Assembly (NCBI GenBank): GCA_023269235.1
Contig: JAHFTW010000002.1
Coordinates: forward strand, 119,294-183,293
DNA length: 64,000 bases
Source: Thermoplasmata archaeon
GTDB taxonomy: Archaea; Thermoplasmatota; E2; JACPAO01; JAHFTW01
Direction of reading: 5' to 3'
Shown: positions 6,443 to 41,681 of the stretch, piece after piece
Numbering within the stretch: position 1 is the stretch's first letter
Layout of the letters: each line of letters begins with the position of its first letter
The notes under the pieces: generated by a model
Told to the model about the DNA's origin: nothing
Database searches by the model: none
Seen by the model: only the letters and a program-made list of their open reading frames with translations
Position numbers and translations under genes: made by a program

Positions 6443-9400
6443 TTACGGCTGGCATGCGGACGGCGCATCGGGCGCCGCGAACGCTGGCTCGAGGGCCTTG
6501 AGCGCGACGGCCATGCACTGGCCGTTGATGGTGTCGTGGCGGCCGCCGCCGGCGACGCTGAGCTCGGTGGCGACCCACGGCTTGACGGAGGTCGCCGCGT
6601 GCGCGCCGCACGACTGGCCGACGTGGAACGTTGCCCCGTTGCGCTCCAGCCAGAGGCCCCCGGCGCGGGCGGAGAGCCGGTCGCCGGGCACGAGCGTGTA
6701 CGGGCCCGGCACGGCGTCGAGGCCGGCAAGACAGGTGTCCCCCAAGGCCGCGTTGAGGGGCAGCGCGAGGTCGGGGCCGAAGGTGAGGACGGGGACCTTG
6801 GCGGCCGACCAGCTCGTGAGCTGGGCCGAGACGGCGGGGCCCGCCCGGTAGGGGCCGTAGCCGCCCTCGATGAGGACGAGGTCGGGGGCGCCGGAGACCG
6901 CGGGGCCGAAGACGTCGGCCGCGGCGACGCGGGTCTGGGGCAGGGCGCGGGGCAGGGCCGCCAAGGCGTCGATGCCCCAGAAGTGGCTCTCGCCCAATTC
7001 CGGCACGCTTGGATCCGTCATGGACGAGCGCTCATGGAGCAGGAAGAGGACGTTCTTCGCAGGGGCCGGGGCTGCCTGGAGCGCCTGCCGCTCGGCCAGG
7101 GTCTGCTCCAAGAAGCGCGCGCCGTACTCTTGGCTGGGCTCGATGCTGGAGCCTTCGAAGAACTCGTTGAAGGTCGCGATGACGGGGAAGGTCGGCGGGT
7201 GCGCGATGGTGGAGTCCCAGCTCCGCGAGTAGAACGACGCGCCGCCCGGACCGTCGGGGAACGCGGGGATGACAAACCCGTTCGGGCGGTTGACGGTGTC
7301 GTCGTACGAGGGCGCCACGCCAAACGAGCTCAGGCGGCCCGTCGCGTCGGCGAAGGCGGTGAGGCGGTGGTTGCGGTCCTCCCACAACGCGAAGGTGTCG
7401 TTGAAGGGCGCCTTCGGCTGGTTGCCCCACGTGAAGGACGGGCTGTAGATGAACGACCCGTCGAAGGCGGAGAGGCTCACGAGCGACTTGACGGTGCCCG
7501 CCTGGAAGTCGGCGCGCTCGTTGAGGGCGTCGCCGTTGACCATGAAGAGCGGCGTCCCGACGGCGGCCTCGAGGCGGGCGCGCAGGTCCTCCCAGAACGC
7601 GACGTGCTGCACCAAGTGGGCTGCGCGCCACAGGCCGTTGGCGCCAGGGTCGTTGAAGGACTTGTACGTCGTCGGGTAGTACTGCAGGACTGAGGGGACG
7701 GTGGCCTGGAGGCTGGAGTCGTTGAAGGCGGCGCGCAGCGTCTCGAGGGAGTGGAGGGAGAGGAGGGTGCGGGCCAGGCTCGCCTTGTCCTCAGGGTGGA
7801 AGCTGACCCCGCCGACATACGAGTCGTAGAAGAAGACCACCGGGCGGCCGCCCATGTGGAGCGCGGAGGGTTGGAGCAGCTGCGCCTTGAGGTCAACGAC
7901 GAACGCCGAGATGGCGTCCCGCGTGCCGTTGTCGAGGCGGTAGAAGGAGGCGGGGACCAGCTGCCCGAGCTCGTTCACGGGGTGGTGCTCCGCCTGGTCG
8001 TACACCTGGTTGAGCTCAATGAGGGGCGCGACGCGCAGGCCCGCCTTCGTCGCCTCATCCTGGAACGTGCGGTAGCGTTCGGCCTCGCCGCGGTGGTAAC
8101 TCACGACCGCGGTGTCAATGCCGGCCCCAATCATGGCGGCGACCTGGTCGCGGGCCACGCCCCGCGTGTTCGTGTAGTAGCCGATGGTGGGGACCTGGCT
8201 GACCACCTCCCAGTTGCCGTAGCGCACCGCGGGATCATGGGCCGGGTTCTGCCACCACAAGTAGGTGAAGGCGCCCACCAGCGGCTGAGCGGTGGCGGGG
8301 ATGAAGGCGGCGGGCGGGGCGGCCGCGCCGCCGAGTGCCGGCAGGAAGCCGACGCCGATGAGGAGGAGGCCGAGAACGCCCGTCGGGAGCAGGTGGCGGA
8401 CGCCCACGGGGGAGCGCGAACGCTGGCCGCTGAGGATGCGCAGCGCGAGCCACGCCATCGCGAACAGGGTGATGGACACCAGGGCCACAAGGATGGTTTG
8501 GAGCCACCACCAGAAGTCCGGCGAAAGGCTGCGCAACCGTTCGGCCGCAACGTCCACGGGCACGCCGCCCAAGACGACGTTGGCGACGTCTGGGGGCAGG
8601 AAGGTGAGGAAATGGAAGCCGCCGATGGCGATGACGAGCGCGAACAGCGTCGGCGTCCAGCGCGTCAGGAAATGGCCGAGGCGGTCGAGGACGTGGAGTT
8701 GGTCCAGGACGAGGATGGGCGCGACGAGGAGCACAAGGTACTGTTCGTTGACGACGCGGTTCCACACGAGGATGGCGATGCCGGCCATCAGGGTCAGCAT
8801 CAGGCTGGTGCCCTTGCCGCGCAGCCGCGTTGAGAGGTAGCCCACCGCGACGAGGGAGGCCACCATCAGGAGCGGGCTGAGGAGCTTGACGACGCCGTCG
8901 GAGAGGACCTCGCGCGGCACGAGCTGCCAGAGCGTCAGGCCCTGCACGCCGCGCGCCAGGTGCATTCCGACGACCTGCTGCCAGAAGCCGCCGGGGTCGG
9001 AGAGGAAGAAGGGGGCGCTCACGGCGGCGACGATGCCGGCGCCCGCGGCGCCGAAGCGGAACGCCGACTCCCAGCCGTGGCGCCGCACCAGGTACGGCAG
9101 CATCGGCAGGACGAGGAGGGCGGGGAAGGGCTTGACCAGAAAGGCGAGGCCGACGAGGACGCCAGCCTTGCCGGGCTTGCCGTTGCCGTAGGCGAGCAGG
9201 CCGCCGAGGTAGAGGGCCATGAGCGCGACGTCGGTCATGCCCCACGCGGCGGCCACGAGCAGGAGGAACGGGTTCCAGAGGAAGCGCCGTTCGACCTTGC
9301 GGGCCTCGTCTTCGTCGGAGCCGAAGCGGCGCGCCCAAGCCCCAGCGACCCAGGCGAGCGCCACAAGGGAGGCGATCATGGGGAGCTTCCACAGCACGCG

Positions 9401-10730: not shown

Positions 10731-11285
10731 CTAGACTTCCCAGACGTCGGACTTGCGCTTGGCGCCGACGAGGTCGATGGCGCCCGGGGCGGACTCGGCG
10801 GCGTGCGGGTTGCGCCCTCCCCCGAGGCGGCGGGCGGGCTCGGCCTCGACGACCTTGCTAGCCCCCATGTTGTCCACGAGCGCCATCTCGCCCATGAACG
10901 TGAAGCGGATGGACTCCTTGGCAAGGCGGCCAAGGAACAGTTCGCACGCGGAGACGAACGCCTGCGCGTCGAGCTTACGCTGGCCGGGCGCGGCATCGGC
11001 GGGGTAACCGCCCATGTAGATGGTGAGGAAGGCGCGGCCGAGGCGGCGCACGAAGATGAGCGTCGCCGTGCCGCGCCCCAACCGGAGGTGCGTCCCCGAG
11101 CTGTGCAGGACGAAGCCGGTCTCGCCGCCGTCCTGGACCTCCCAGCCGTCGAGCCCCATCTCGCGTGCCTGGAGCGGGCCCCACATCGCCATCGCGGTGT
11201 GCTTGGGCACGGGCGCCTCCCATTTGCTGACGAAGACCCCCGCGTCCAGCACGTCCATGCCAAGGAATGCAAGGCGCGGGGTCAT
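10731..11285 (-). CDS. Hypothetical protein (184 aa), operonic with the DPPR-synthase-like and HAD genes
   Basis: High GC3 ORF in the same orientation, with short gaps to its neighbours. No recognisable motifs. Confidence 0.4.
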   Translation of the reverse strand: MTPRLAFLGMDVLDAGVFVSKWEAPVPKHTAMAMWGPLQAREMGLDGWEVQDGGETGFVLHSSGTHLRLGRGTATLIFVRRLGRAFLTIYMGGYPADAAPGQRKLDAQAFVSACELFLGRLAKESIRFTFMGEMALVDNMGASKVVEAEPARRLGGGRNPHAAESAPGAIDLVGAKRKSDVWEV

Positions 11286-21389: not shown

Positions 21390-21473
21390 GCCAACGTCGC
21401 TCAATCCGGTAGAGCAGCGGTCTTGAAAACCGCCGTCCGCAAGGATTTCCAGGTTCAAATCCTGGCGTTGGCG
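21390..21473 (+). tRNA. tRNA-Ser (anticodon TGA), class II with long variable arm
   Basis: Manual fold: acceptor GCCAACG/CGTTGGC. D stem GCTC/GAGC. Anticodon stem GCGGT/ACCGC with loop CTTGAAA. Long variable arm. T arm CCAGG-TTCAAAT-CCTGG. Discriminator G. Confidence 0.8.
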
Positions 21474-21522
21474 CTTGGGTTGATCGGCAGATCTATGGAT
21501 CTCGGCACCATCGTTTTGGACG

Positions 21523-22047
21523 ATGAGTCGCCGGGCTTCTTACCAGAAGACTCGGTCGAACAATCAAACTGAAGATGAGGCGTTGTTGGTTGTCTTACGC
21601 GCCGACCCCAGAATGCAACTGGTGAATTCCAAGACGCGCAATCGTCTCCTCGACCTTCTGGGACTTCGACCGGGTTTCAGTAGCCGCGTGTTTGACCTCA
21701 TCCGAACCAACTCTGTAGCTCCGGCGCTTGACGAATCTAACATTCACGAACATTTGGACGGCCTTGTTCTTGTTGAGGTCAAAGCCACTCAAGCGCCCAT
21801 CGTCGATTCGTCTCTTCATGGGTTCTTTTTTGGGGCAACCGAGAATGAGTACAAAATTGCGAAGCAACTTGGAGCGGCCTATTGTTTCGCGTTCGTGGTC
21901 CTTCGACCTGCGGGGGGCGGCAAACCTTTCCACGTTCTCTTGGACCTCGATGAAGTTGAGCGCCGCACACAGACCAAGCGAACGCAGTTTCAGGTGAATT
22001 TCAAGTCGGCCCGTCAAGGTGGTGTTCCCCCTGGACCTAAGCCTTGA
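21523..22047 (+). CDS. DUF3883-like PD-(D/E)xK nuclease-fold protein (low-GC islet gene 1)
   Basis: HEHLDGLVLVEVKAT ... FFFGATENEYKIAKQLGAAYCFAFVV resembles the DUF3883 core and C-terminal helix. Codon usage is markedly lower in GC than its surroundings. Confidence 0.5.
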   Translation: MSRRASYQKTRSNNQTEDEALLVVLRADPRMQLVNSKTRNRLLDLLGLRPGFSSRVFDLIRTNSVAPALDESNIHEHLDGLVLVEVKATQAPIVDSSLHGFFFGATENEYKIAKQLGAAYCFAFVVLRPAGGGKPFHVLLDLDEVERRTQTKRTQFQVNFKSARQGGVPPGPKP

Positions 22048-22807
22048 CCCCCGCCCCGGTGAAGGATACCGAAGCGCCAGCCAATGGGCCCGTCGCGTAA
22101 CTGAGAATTGGGCCGCGCGTGAATTGTACTGTTGGGGATGCCAGTCCCCACATCTTTCCGCGCACGCGACCAACACCAGCGTCGAGGATTACCGTTGTCC
22201 GTCTTGCTCTCGACGCGTTCAAGTCAAGGCGAAAAACGGGCCAATCGGGAAGACGGTTGCCAACTCAGGCTACGAAGTAAAACTTCAGGCCATCCGGAAA
22301 AATGTCGCACCAGACTATGCGTTCATGTCGTACAGCCGAACCGATTTGGCCGTCGAATCATTGTTCGTTGTTCCCGGTTCGTTTCTCTCTCAATCTGTAA
22401 TTTCTCCGCGTACGCCTTTGAGCGCGACTGCTCGGCGTGCTGGCTGGGTCGGCTCGAATATTCATCTGGACCGCATTCCGGCGTTTGGGAAAATCGTCGT
22501 GATTGCCGACGGAGCCGCACGTCCCAAGGTGCAGGTCCGCAAAGATTTCTCACAGATTGGATTTGTCGGGTCCTTCCCTCAAGAGCAGCGTGGTTGGCTT
22601 GGGGATGTCCTTTCTTGTTTGGAGAAGCTTGACCTCACGTCCGGAAGTTCATTCCATCTTGGCGACCTCTACGCATTCGAGGATTCCCTGCGTCGCCTGC
22701 ATCCAACGAACAACAACATTCAGCCAAAAATTCGGCAGCAACTCCAAGTGTTGGAACGGCAAGGAATTGTTCGCCGTCTCCGCCCGGGACTGTTCCAAAA
22801 GGTTTGA
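22019..22807 (+). CDS. DpnI-like (Dam-replacing family) methyl-directed type IIM restriction endonuclease: Zn-ribbon + PD-(D/E)xK + C-terminal winged helix
   Basis: YCWGCQSP...YRCPSC zinc ribbon. GYEVKLQAI (ExK). SATARRAGWVGSNIHLDRIP and KIRQQLQVLERQGIVRRL closely recall DpnI segments (TARRAGWIG..., IRQQLQIL...). Low-GC codon usage. Confidence 0.6.
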   Translation: MVFPLDLSLDPRPGEGYRSASQWARRVTENWAARELYCWGCQSPHLSAHATNTSVEDYRCPSCSRRVQVKAKNGPIGKTVANSGYEVKLQAIRKNVAPDYAFMSYSRTDLAVESLFVVPGSFLSQSVISPRTPLSATARRAGWVGSNIHLDRIPAFGKIVVIADGAARPKVQVRKDFSQIGFVGSFPQEQRGWLGDVLSCLEKLDLTSGSSFHLGDLYAFEDSLRRLHPTNNNIQPKIRQQLQVLERQGIVRRLRPGLFQKV

Positions 22808-23035
22808 CTCCACCCCGGCAAAGCGATTTCGTTGCCGTTTCCATCTGAGTCGCATGAGCTACCGGCCGCTGGTGCCGCAGGTTGTTTGTCCGTGTGGGAG
22901 AAAAATTCCTCGTCGAAGTCTTGCGTTGACGGAGCCTGATACGGGGAGTTACCGGGGCGCCATATGGCAATCAGGTTGCTCCTGCGGACGTTCCCTGACG
23001 ATTGAAATTGCGGACGACCCCGAATATCCTTCCGA

Positions 23036-24057: not shown

Positions 24058-24459
24058 CTACAGGCTGCGTTCGTGGCCGGCGCGCGAGCCGGAGCCTGCG
24101 CCCATCCACGCGAGGCGGCCGGGGCCGCGCGCGACGATGACGCGCAAGCCGCTCTTCACGGCCTCCGCCTGGATGCGGCGGTCGTTGGTGAAGACGACGC
24201 CCTGCAGGCGGCGCGCGACCTCGAGGAGGCCATCATCGCCGGGCAAGGTCGTGGGCGCGACGGTGCTGCGCGCGGTGAGCTTGAGGGCCAGCTTGGCGGC
24301 GCGGCCGGGGGCGCCGCCGTTCTTGGCGAGGCCGGAGAGCTCGTTGGCGACGCTTTGCGGGACGACGAGCTCGATGATGCCGGCGAGCTGCTCGAGGCGC
24401 GTCAGGATGTCCCCCTCCGCGACGAGCAGGAGCGCGTTGGTGTCGGCGACGATCTGCAT
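24058..24459 (-). CDS. PIN-domain protein immediately downstream of aIF2-gamma (conserved archaeal pairing)
   Basis: MQIVADTNALLL ... TNDRR. PIN acidic residues. Confidence 0.75.
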   Translation of the reverse strand: MQIVADTNALLLVAEGDILTRLEQLAGIIELVVPQSVANELSGLAKNGGAPGRAAKLALKLTARSTVAPTTLPGDDGLLEVARRLQGVVFTNDRRIQAEAVKSGLRVIVARGPGRLAWMGAGSGSRAGHERSL

Positions 24460-27426: not shown

Positions 27427-27471
27427 GGGCCTGGAGCATAGATTTAGGTACGCCAAACCGGTCGGCTTGGC

Positions 27472-27900
27472 GTGGACGGCGCGGTCTCCGACCAGATGCA
27501 GGAGTACCTGGAGACCATCTATCGTCTCGAGGCGGAGTCCGTCATCGCGCGCACCGGCGAGATCGCGCGCCACCTCAAGGTCGCACCGCCCTCCGTCACC
27601 GACATGATCCAGAAGCTCGAGAAGGCGGGCCTCGTCGAGTATGAGCCGTACAAGGGCGTCGTGCTGACCCCGGCGGGACGCGCCGTCGGCAAGAGGCAGC
27701 TCGAGAAACACCGCATCATGCAGGCGTTCCTGCAGGAGGTGTGCGGCATGGGCCACGACGAGGCGCACGAGGCCGCCTGCGACATGGAGCACACGCTTCC
27801 CGCGCAGCTGGAGCAGTGGTGCGCCGCCTTCCTCGCCAAAAAGATGGGCAAACCCTTCGACACGACGCGCAAGGTCAAGGAACAGATCGTGAGCCGGTAG
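27472..27900 (+). CDS. DtxR/MntR-family metal-dependent transcriptional repressor
   Basis: MQEYLETIYRL...IARTGEIARHLKVAPPSVTDMIQKLEKAGLV HTH. Metal-binding H/E/C residues in the dimerisation domain. Confidence 0.85.
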   Translation: MDGAVSDQMQEYLETIYRLEAESVIARTGEIARHLKVAPPSVTDMIQKLEKAGLVEYEPYKGVVLTPAGRAVGKRQLEKHRIMQAFLQEVCGMGHDEAHEAACDMEHTLPAQLEQWCAAFLAKKMGKPFDTTRKVKEQIVSR

Positions 27901-27954
27901 TGCCCTAGCTGCACCACCCCCACGTCTTCGTTCGACGCGCCTCGACCGCGTGGA

Positions 27955-28015
27955 TTTCGACTCGTCGAAAATCGTTAATACCCCTCGCCCGTCGCTGATT
28001 TCGAGGCCCCGAAAT
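27955..28015. promoter_or_regulatory. Putative metal-repressor operators and TATA box in the FTR1 promoter
   Basis: IR1 TTTCGAC-tc-GTCGAAA (27955-27970). TATA-like ttaata (27975-27980). IR2 ATTTCG-aggcccc-CGAAAT (27998-28015) overlapping the ATG. Both IRs share a GATTTCGA core. Confidence 0.45.
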
Positions 28016-28877
28016 GGCGTTCCTGGACACCACCCTCGTCTCCCTGCGCGAATCGCTCGAGGCGTTCTTGCTTGTCGGCATCCTCAGCGGCCTCGTCGTC
28101 AAGCTCGGCCATCCCAAGGCGCGCGCGCCCATCCTGTGGGGCGCCCTCGCCGGCCTGCTTGCCGCGACCTTGCTTGGCATCCTCGCCAACGGCGTGGCCG
28201 CCGAGCTGTACGGCAACAACGCCGCGCTCTTCGAGGGCCTCGCGAGCCTGCTTGCCGTGGGCATCCTGAGCTACATGGTCGTCTGGATGTACAAGCACAC
28301 GCGCACCATGATGGGCACGCTGCACACCAAGGCCAAGGAGGCGCTTGGGGCCGGCCGCCCCGCGCTCCTCTTCGGCCTCGCCTTCGTCGCCGTCGTGCGC
28401 GAGGGCATCGAGACTGTCCTCTTCATCGCCGGCAAACTCCCCGAGGACGGCGCCGGCCCCACCAGCCTCGCGGTCCTCGTCGGCGTCGCCCTCTCCGCGC
28501 TCCTCGCCTTCGCGCTCTTCGCCGGCGTCGTGAAGCTGAACGTCCAGGGCTTCTTCGCGGTCACGGGCGCCCTCCTCGTCGTCGTCGGCGCCGGCCTCAT
28601 GATCACCGTCGTCCACGAGCTCTCCGAGCCCAAGGACGAGGGCGGACCCGGATGGTTCCCAGAGACCCCCGTCGCCTTCGACCTCTCCGGCTCCCTGCCC
28701 ACCGAGTGCGCTGCGACCACGGGCGCGGCTTGCACCACCGGCGGCATCCTGCATGCGGCCTTCGGCTACCGCGCCGACTTGCGCTGGGCCGAGCTCGCCG
28801 CGTGGGCCGCCTACCTCGGGGCCTTCGGCGTCGGCTACGGCCTCTCCCGCCGCGCCCCGGCCTCTCCCGCCGCCTGA
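28014..28877 (+). CDS. FTR1/EfeU-family high-affinity iron permease
   Basis: Two RExxE motifs (RESLEAF, REGIETV). Seven TM helices. Confidence 0.85.
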   Translation: MAFLDTTLVSLRESLEAFLLVGILSGLVVKLGHPKARAPILWGALAGLLAATLLGILANGVAAELYGNNAALFEGLASLLAVGILSYMVVWMYKHTRTMMGTLHTKAKEALGAGRPALLFGLAFVAVVREGIETVLFIAGKLPEDGAGPTSLAVLVGVALSALLAFALFAGVVKLNVQGFFAVTGALLVVVGAGLMITVVHELSEPKDEGGPGWFPETPVAFDLSGSLPTECAATTGAACTTGGILHAAFGYRADLRWAELAAWAAYLGAFGVGYGLSRRAPASPAA

Positions 28878-40677: not shown

Positions 40678-40793
40678 GACCGCCCCCGCGGCGGCGCCAG
40701 GTTCAAAGACCCCCCGGAAGTCGGCCGGTCGTCAAGGGGGACCGGGACACATCGGCCCGGCAGGCAATGCCACCCCGGGCACCGGCGCGTTCC

Positions 40794-40866
40794 GGGGAGA
40801 TACCAAAGCGGCTATGGGCGGGACTGCAGATCCCGTTTTACGGGGGTTCGAATCCCTCTCTCCCCT
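40794..40866 (+). tRNA. tRNA-Cys (anticodon GCA)
   Basis: Acceptor GGGGAGA/TCTCCCC. Anticodon stem CGGGA/TCCCG with loop CTGCAGA. T arm GGGGG-TTCGAAT-CCCTC. Discriminator U (Cys identity element). D arm is irregular. Confidence 0.6.
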
Positions 40867-40871
40867 CTGCC

Positions 40872-41681
40872 ATGCTTGGCCAATGCCGCACCCATGGATA
40901 CTACCGCGGGGAGTCGTGCCCCCTCTGCGACCAGCCTGGTCGTCTCCTGATGAAGGACTTCGAGATTGACCGCGTCGGCCGCATGATGGCCGGCATCCTG
41001 CGCCATTTCCCGGAGCGCTTCGGCCTCCAGATGGACGGCCGCGGCTGGGTGGACCTCGACGGCTTCGTCGCCTCCATCCAGCAGAGCCGCGACAACTACC
41101 GCCGCTGGCTGCGCCGCGAGCACATCGAGGCCCTCGTCGAGACCGACGAGAAAGGCCGCTACCAGATCGACGGCGGCATGGTGCGCGCCACCTACGCCCA
41201 CTCCGTCAAGGTCAACCTCGACGACCTGCCCGAGTGCACCCTGGAGACCCTCTACTTCCCTGTCAGCGAAGAGGAGATGGACTTGGTCCTCGAGACCGGC
41301 CTGCGCCCGTCGGACCGCGACAAGATCCACCTCTCCAGCACGCCCGACAAGGCGTACTCGGCCGGGCGCGTCCACATCGCGGACCCCATCCTGCTCGCCA
41401 TCAACGTCAAGAAGGCCTCGGACGCGGGGAACTTCATCTTCCGCGCCGGAAAGACCGTCTACATCACGGACGCCGTCGAGCCCGAGCACCTCAGCAAGTT
41501 CGACGACGCCGAGGCCATGGCCAAACTCCAGGAGGAGTTCGGCACCTCGAAGTCCGACGACGAGAAGAAGGCCCGCGAAGACGCTGCGCGCAAGGAGGAA
41601 GACGCCAAGATGGCGGCGCGCAGCGAGGAAGAGGGCGGCCCCGCGAAGGCCGACTCCGACGACGACGCGGACGACGAATAG
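40872..41681 (+). CDS. kptA: RNA 2'-phosphotransferase KptA/Tpt1 with possible N-terminal Zn-ribbon extension and acidic/Lys-rich C-terminal tail
   Basis: KDFEIDRVGRMMAGILRHFPERFGLQMDGRGWVDL matches the Tpt1 core. CRTHGYYRGESCPLCDQ lies upstream, in frame. Alternative start MKDFEID (40950). Confidence 0.75.
   Translation: MLGQCRTHGYYRGESCPLCDQPGRLLMKDFEIDRVGRMMAGILRHFPERFGLQMDGRGWVDLDGFVASIQQSRDNYRRWLRREHIEALVETDEKGRYQIDGGMVRATYAHSVKVNLDDLPECTLETLYFPVSEEEMDLVLETGLRPSDRDKIHLSSTPDKAYSAGRVHIADPILLAINVKKASDAGNFIFRAGKTVYITDAVEPEHLSKFDDAEAMAKLQEEFGTSKSDDEKKAREDAARKEEDAKMAARSEEEGGPAKADSDDDADDE

Follow-up and report, generated by a model that had tools for sequence, protein, structure and literature searches.

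Predicted operators of a DtxR-family regulator bracket the promoter of an FTR1-type iron permease gene in an uncultured Thermoplasmatota archaeon

In the window (the whole stretch of 64,000 nucleotides analysed here, with a G+C content of 69%, from an uncultured Thermoplasmatota archaeon), a dtxR gene is followed by a gene for an FTR1/EfeU-family iron permease. The gap between the two genes is 113 bp long, and it houses two palindromes and a TATA-like box as shown in Table 1. Both palindromes are present far beyond chance. It is likely that these two palindromes, together with a third one upstream of dtxR, are operators of the regulator encoded by dtxR, and that its holo-form represses the FTR1 gene. 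The dual-site promoter is very probably an ordinary metal-repressor switch that controls the uptake of iron, in a lineage-specific version of a known motif.

Table 1. Genes and predicted regulatory elements at the dtxR-FTR1 locus, in order of position in the window.
Feature	Position	Strand	Description
Candidate operator TTTAGGTACGCCAAAC	27443..27458		Third, weaker site, dtxR promoter; 14.2 bits
dtxR	27472..27900	+	DtxR/MntR-family metalloregulator, 142 aa, two domains
Predicted distal operator TTTCGACTCGTCGAAA	27955..27970		Perfect 7-bp arms; 23.5 bits
TATA-like box TTAATA	27975..27980	+	FTR1 promoter; conserved AT-rich peak in 28 promoters
Predicted proximal operator TTTCGAGGCCCCGAAA	27999..28014		24.4 bits, top match in the window
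FTR1/EfeU-family iron permease gene	28014..28877	+	Predicted regulated gene; Pfam FTR1

The identities that the initial annotation had given to the two genes were borne out by Pfam. The dtxR product matches PF01325 (Fe_dep_repress; 1.9e-23, 82.9 bits against a cut-off of 26) and PF02742 (Fe_dep_repr_C; 2.7e-14, 53.4 bits against a cut-off of 27), and the permease matches PF03239 (1.2e-38, 133.4 bits against a cut-off of 25.3). The two domains of the dtxR product are a winged-helix DNA-binding domain at the N-terminus and a domain for metal binding and dimerisation. The permease has two REXXE motifs, RESLE at residues 12–16 and REGIE at residues 129–133. According to the alignment of orthologues, the residues R12-E13-x-x-E16 and R129-E130-G131-x-E133 are unchanged in all eight of the eight sequences. 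The score of the permease against the NCBIfam EfeU equivalog is 174.9 bits, which is under the cut-off of 255.

The distal palindrome (IR1) reads TTTCGAC-tc-GTCGAAA, and its arms occupy positions 27955–27961 and 27964–27970. The right arm ends 4 nt before the TATA-like TTAATA and directly adjoins the BRE position. The proximal palindrome (IR2) consists of ATTTCG (27998–28003) and CGAAAT (28010–28015), and it overlaps the ATG of FTR1 (28014–28016); the 3' edge of the proximal operator is the A of this ATG. Written as ATTTCGAGG followed by CCCCGAAAT, IR2 forms an 18-bp palindrome that has a single mismatch. IR1 and IR2 are two copies of the same 16-bp pattern, TTTCGA-N4-TCGAAA, and their centres are 44 bp apart, with TTAATA flanked by the two copies. 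IR1 with its 7-bp arms and the ttaata box between the repeats had been described in the initial annotation, and both are present. For IR2, the arms and the overlap with the start codon were described correctly, but the spacer is 6 nt (AGGCCC) and not 7 nt. The core proposed to be shared by the two repeats, GATTTCGA, is indeed found at both sites, and only at these two places in 64 kb (27953 and 27997). The conserved unit, however, is the 16-bp motif TTMGR-N4-YCKAA, and the leading G and A of the core are unconserved.

The conservation of this arrangement was analysed in related genomes. The scan was performed with one genome per species and an alignment of 40 DtxR homologues, and 37 loci were obtained, about 32 of them from Thermoplasmatota metagenome-assembled genomes (MAGs); the lineage is represented here by MAG records only. 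Further loci were added by a metagenome scan using an alignment of eight FTR1 orthologues. About 28 related Thermoplasmatota promoters have a common layout, in which the distal palindrome is followed by 4–5 nt, an AT-rich TATA-like peak, 18–20 nt, the proximal palindrome and the start codon. In the 28 promoters, the AT fraction is 0.64–0.96 at +5 to +10 past the distal site, versus 0.07–0.36 over the next eight positions. Counted from the proximal site, the start codon is found at +5 in four loci and otherwise at +15 to +18. The distal and proximal sites are 43–46 bp apart in 23 of 26 loci for which the distance was tallied. In a set of ten equally spaced loci, the distal arms have a pairwise identity of 0.81 and the proximal arms one of 0.93, versus 0.35–0.41 for the flanks and spacer. 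The difference between arms and flanks is a clear phylogenetic footprint. In the matrix of 76 sites collected from these genomes, T2, T3, G5, C12, A14 and A15 of the motif are invariant or nearly so.

The gene neighbourhood is also kept. The order is MsrB on the minus strand, then acyl-CoA dehydrogenase, DtxR, a cargo slot and ribosomal protein S6e, the named genes all on the plus strand except MsrB. In eight loci, that of the window among them, the cargo slot is filled by FTR1, and in about sixteen it is filled by an ABC operon that encodes a binding protein, an ATPase and a permease; in a few loci, it is empty. Loci with a transporter gene behind dtxR have the dual-operator promoter, and loci lacking one do not. 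The binding protein of the ABC operon is a genuine transferrin homologue and a lipoprotein. The solved structures closest to it are those of melanotransferrin (7.7e-31) and serotransferrin (1e-22). A search for the palindromes at other metal genes, which had been suggested at the outset, was run in the related genomes, and the pair was found before FTR1 or the transferrin-like ABC importer in 28 promoters. FTR1 homologues that were found in metagenomes independently of dtxR have the same sites (L039, L041, L042, L045 and L050), and more distant FTR1 homologues have TTAGG-type sites (L040, L043, L044, L046 and L054).

In most of the related genomes, the gene after dtxR is that of the transferrin-like binding protein and not FTR1. 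The lipoprotein encoded at 8488–9429 of L014 matches both Pfam Transferrin and Phosphonate-bd, and the gene is also present in L009, L010, L012, L013, L018–L021, L023, L024, L026–L029 and L031. An archaeal transferrin-like iron-binding protein is perhaps of interest in its own right.

The third site, which was absent from the initial annotation, lies on the promoter of dtxR itself. It is located in the 45-bp gap after the stop codon of the acyl-CoA dehydrogenase gene and ends 14 nt before the GTG of dtxR. It overlaps the only AT-rich, TATA-like stretch there (approximately 27438–27447). Its matrix score is within the genome-wide null range, and a 65-nt control window would reach such a score with p of about 0.0015. 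A dtxR-upstream site is present at the same relative position in 23 of 33 loci. The site is therefore credible because its position is conserved, and not by its score alone. This position suggests that the site mediates negative autoregulation of dtxR.

The regulator has more than 120 homologues at 67–89% identity in Thermoplasmatota MAGs, and an identical protein on an identical contig is found in the ENA sample ERZ27279977. Its 33 homologues in the PDB are led by MntR, DR2539, DtxR and IdeR. The scores against the NCBIfam equivalogs are all under the cut-offs (90.7 versus 350, 88.3 versus 138 and 63.4 versus 290), and on these scores the regulator was assigned to neither of the named equivalogs, MntR and actinobacterial DtxR. 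The regulator is without an SH3-like domain. According to an ungapped alignment with Corynebacterium diphtheriae DtxR, in which the aligned range agrees with the PDB match table, the regulator keeps H79, H98, C102, E105 and H106 of DtxR, while M10 is replaced by Glu (E11) and E83 by Gln (Q84). All of the aligned metal-ligand positions are invariant in 40 homologues. The ligand set is a hybrid of a DtxR-like Cys and an MntR-like Glu, the latter corresponding to Asp8 of MntR. The best solved homologues of the regulator are Mn sensors. The residues alone leave both Fe and Mn, and would be compatible with Mn2+ or mixed sensing.

Two experimentally defined operators of the DtxR family have the same geometry as the sites described here. 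TroR of Haloferax volcanii binds TTTAGGC-NNN-CCTAAAANAN (that is, TTTAGGC-NNN-CCTAAA) in tandem copies and represses iron-uptake genes under iron-replete conditions, as determined by ChIP-seq, RNA-seq and reporter mutagenesis (PMC10783522). The 16-bp register is the same, with a 6-bp arm, N4, a 6-bp arm and invariant TT...AA, and tandem copies are located at iron-uptake promoters in both cases. TroR is likewise a DtxR-family regulator, compared here by family and operator. The TTAGG half-site of TroR also appears at orthologous positions in the present lineage, including the dtxR-upstream site of the window. The FTR1 sites, on the other hand, have TTCGA/TCGAA and not TTAGG/CCTAA, a difference of two positions per half-site. 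The spacing of 43–46 bp exceeds that in Haloferax, which is about 30 bp. The sites described here bracket the TATA-like box and cover the start codon, whereas the TroR sites are reported to be about 100 nt upstream of start codons. On this comparison, the FTR1-site motif is readily described as a variant of the TroR type that is best written TTMGR.

DR2539 of Deinococcus radiodurans is the second-closest solved homologue of the regulator (4.5e-19). In the crystal, one DR2539 dimer binds the dr1709 operator ATTTTAGTCGCGCCTAAAAT, metal is required, and the Ala-Pro turn contacts thymine methyl groups (PDB 8PVT/8PVZ; bioRxiv 10.1101/2024.02.12.579695). This operator has the TTTAG-N6-CTAAA geometry, the same as that found here. 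The DNA-contacting turn with Ala-Pro is kept, as VAPASVT in DR2539 and VAPPSVT in the regulator. DR2539 differs in that it is bacterial, senses Mn, has an additional ancillary domain and regulates the gene of an NRAMP Mn transporter. Position 4 of its half-site is A, the mutation of which weakens binding, whereas C dominates at this position in the transporter promoters here.

These comparisons bear on which protein binds the palindromes. Another factor, such as a DtxR paralogue or an unrelated winged-helix protein, might be served by them, and the neighbouring dtxR would then be a bystander. Archaea often have several DtxR paralogues, 1–5 per genome (PMC10783522), and in L020 and L029 the operator pair is not directly beside dtxR. 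However, the pair is directly behind dtxR in more than 20 loci whatever the cargo is, the matching site on the dtxR promoter is the usual signature of autoregulation, and the geometry equals that of the TroR and DR2539 operators. Binding by another factor is accordingly very unlikely, and the protein encoded by the adjacent dtxR gene is probably the binder.

The classical DtxR/IdeR iron box of Corynebacterium and Mycobacterium is the 19-bp TTAGGTTAGCCTAACCTAA, which is bound by two overlapping dimers. The likeness to the present system consists of a DtxR-family repressor, a TTAGG-like half-site, overlap with promoter elements of iron-uptake genes, and Cys/Glu/His ligands in the primary site. 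The differences are that the regulator here is without the SH3-like third domain and has Glu in place of M10. The classical 19-bp box TWAGGTWAGSCTWACCTWA gave no match in the window with up to three mismatches. Among archaea, the DtxR homologue MDR1 of Archaeoglobus fulgidus reportedly has multiple operators and blocks polymerase recruitment at its own operon or a metal-transport operon, and Leyn and Rodionov are said to have reconstructed archaeal DtxR regulons comparatively in 2015, with palindromic lineage-specific motifs upstream of iron transporters. Several operators at one promoter of an archaeal DtxR homologue are a feature shared with MDR1. The MDR1 consensus GTT-N8,9-AAC and the Idr motif WCGAS[C/A]TCGW (PMC3074139) differ in spacing from TTMGR-N4-YCKAA. 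As judged from the motif and its placement, the FTR1-promoter element belongs, as a lineage-specific version, to the well-known class of DtxR-family operators on iron-uptake promoters.

That a DtxR repressor acts both at its own promoter and at the core promoter of a neighbouring importer gene is textbook knowledge, and the present locus extends known biology. What it adds is the 16-bp motif, the layout of two operators with the TATA-like box, the candidate autoregulatory site, and the exchange of FTR1 and the transferrin-like ABC system behind one promoter. The regulator of this lineage is thereby tied to the operator class of TroR and DR2539. The motif and the promoter layout offer a testable basis for iron control in a widespread uncultured group of Thermoplasmatota, and the weight matrix is usable to predict iron regulons from MAGs.

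The positions of the sites suggest the following mechanism. When metal, most likely Fe2+, is sufficient, one metal-loaded dimer would bind to each 16-bp site. With the distal site directly beside the BRE/TATA and the start covered by the proximal site, recruitment of TFB/TBP and RNA polymerase would be blocked, and FTR1 would be off. When iron is scarce, the apo-protein would depart and FTR1 would be transcribed. The weaker site over the TATA region of dtxR would result in negative autoregulation. The proximal site is centred 26–27 nt downstream of the TATA centre. In the window, TATA and ATG are about 36 nt apart, more than is normal for a leaderless transcript. Four loci have the ATG at position 6 of the proximal palindrome, 27–28 nt from the TATA centre, which is the usual archaeal leaderless geometry. 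By analogy with the other loci, FTR1 transcription would start at about 28004 with a leader of about 10 nt, and the proximal operator would have its centre at this start.

The initial annotation had proposed that the operators are placed so as to occlude TFB/TBP and the transcription start site. The geometry agrees with this placement, and the start site itself is deduced from the other loci only. It had also proposed iron-responsive repression by the adjacent DtxR protein. The conserved pair beside dtxR and iron importers agrees with this proposal, while we infer the repression, and iron instead of manganese as the metal. Taken as a whole, the interpretation is supported by the sequence comparisons. 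Two unrelated kinds of iron importer are located behind the same operators, and therefore iron is indicated as the physiological signal. The regulator probably senses iron, and its binding to the palindromes is presumed to be metal-dependent and repressive.

The regulator might instead bind to the palindromes and activate FTR1, or it might be a dual regulator. DtxR-family factors can activate, as TroR does at dpsA (PMC10783522), and Idr1 and Idr2 are described as bifunctional (PMC3074139). However, the overlap with the edge of the BRE/TATA and with the start is the classical layout for an archaeal repressor, and metal-bound activation of an iron importer would oppose homeostasis. TroR represses uptake genes via tandem sites (PMC10783522). 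Activation is thus highly improbable, and repression is the preferred reading of the two FTR1-promoter sites.

The half-sites of the motif were compared in the 76 sites. The motif is two-fold degenerate at four positions, with C or A at 4, G or T at 13, A or G at 6, and T or C at 11. TTAGG and TTCGA swap at orthologous positions across loci, and the half-site types mix freely, so that 38 of the 76 sites are non-complementary at 4/13. Such mixed half-sites would be expected if two monomers each read one half-site. In the window, both FTR1-promoter sites have TTCGA/TCGAA arms, and the dtxR-upstream site has a TTAGG left arm. Across the loci, TTCGA dominates at the start-site operator and TTCGG at the BRE-side operator, and the dtxR-upstream sites are typically TTAGG...CCGAA hybrids.

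These features also bear on whether the repeats act as nucleic-acid hairpins, namely as a terminator of dtxR or as a translation-controlling structure in the leader of the FTR1 mRNA. IR1 is located 55 nt past the stop codon of dtxR, and IR2 spans the start codon and could form a 6-bp stem. The predicted RNA folding, however, is no better than that of shuffled sequences (z = +0.47, −0.93 and +0.69), there is no T-run after IR1, and the Rfam search with these repeats was empty. If transcription starts within IR2 as deduced above, its left arm would be untranscribed. The half-site identity is kept in the 76 sites and the pairing is not, which is therefore incompatible with selection for a hairpin. 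The RNA hairpin or terminator was excluded by the folding z-scores near zero, the empty Rfam search and the broken complementarity in half of the sites, and such a role for the repeats is hardly credible.

With the palindromes regarded as operators, a further possibility can be considered tentatively. A single clade of regulators whose recognition helix is invariant may accept TTCGA, TTCGG, TTAGG and TTAGA in a position-specific manner, which would give graded affinities, and the dual-operator promoter may be a conserved socket for exchanged iron importers. We regard this idea as somewhat less than an even prospect. If it is true, iron import and the regulator would switch at different iron levels, and FTR1 or the transferrin-like ABC system would have been swapped into the socket beside dtxR during evolution.

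The significance of the two FTR1-promoter palindromes was evaluated within the window. Two copies of the 8-mer GATTTCGA alone are unremarkable, as at least two copies were found in 34 of 100 shuffles. The 16-bp pattern with up to one mismatch has two matches versus 0.05 expected, and two matches were reached in none of 100 shuffles. The test of the 16-bp pattern is post hoc, because the pattern was taken from the tested sites themselves. Therefore, the weight matrix was built from the 76 sites, from other genomes only, and the window was scanned with it. The proximal and distal sites rank first and second in 64 kb. The maximum in simulated 64-kb sequences is 13.2±2.6 bits, and the top of 200 simulations is 23.1 bits. 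That the palindromes are AT-rich inverted repeats paired by chance in a GC-rich intergenic region, as the frequency of the 8-mer in shuffles might suggest, is a negligible prospect in view of the expectation for the full 16-bp pattern, the first two ranks in the independently trained matrix and the layout kept in 28 promoters.

The sole other exact match to TTMGR-N4-YCKAA in the window is TTCGGCACCTCGAA at 41538–41551 (14.7 bits). As this match is inside a coding ORF (40767–41681, 304 aa), it was rejected as an operator and is taken as chance. Neither a transferrin-like binding protein gene nor a VOC gene is present within the 64-kb window. In related genomes, the operator motif is also observed ahead of a small VOC/glyoxalase-family gene (about 150 aa), at 7818–7850 of L004 and 10881–10896 of L030. 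At 10882–10943 of L018, the motif is ahead of a gene for a 164-aa protein without a Pfam match, and a VOC gene follows. These VOC-associated genes are possible extra members of the regulon. At 2610–2641 of L046, 2915–2952 of L054 and 7818–7850 of L004, two TTAGG-type sites are 14–20 bp apart and some of them overlap, in comparison with about 44 bp at the promoters described above. Some of the more distant FTR1 or VOC loci thus arrange the same motif differently, with a spacing of 14–20 bp.

Two other features of the window were observed away from the dtxR-FTR1 locus. A PIN-domain (PIN_9) gene on the minus strand (24058–24459) adjoins the eIF2-gamma gene and has no relation to the operators. 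At 21390–23000, the G+C content falls from about 69% to 56–60% right after a tRNA-Ser gene (21390–21474), and low-G+C ORFs follow the tRNA gene at 21523–22047 and 22019–22807. This stretch may be a small integrated island.
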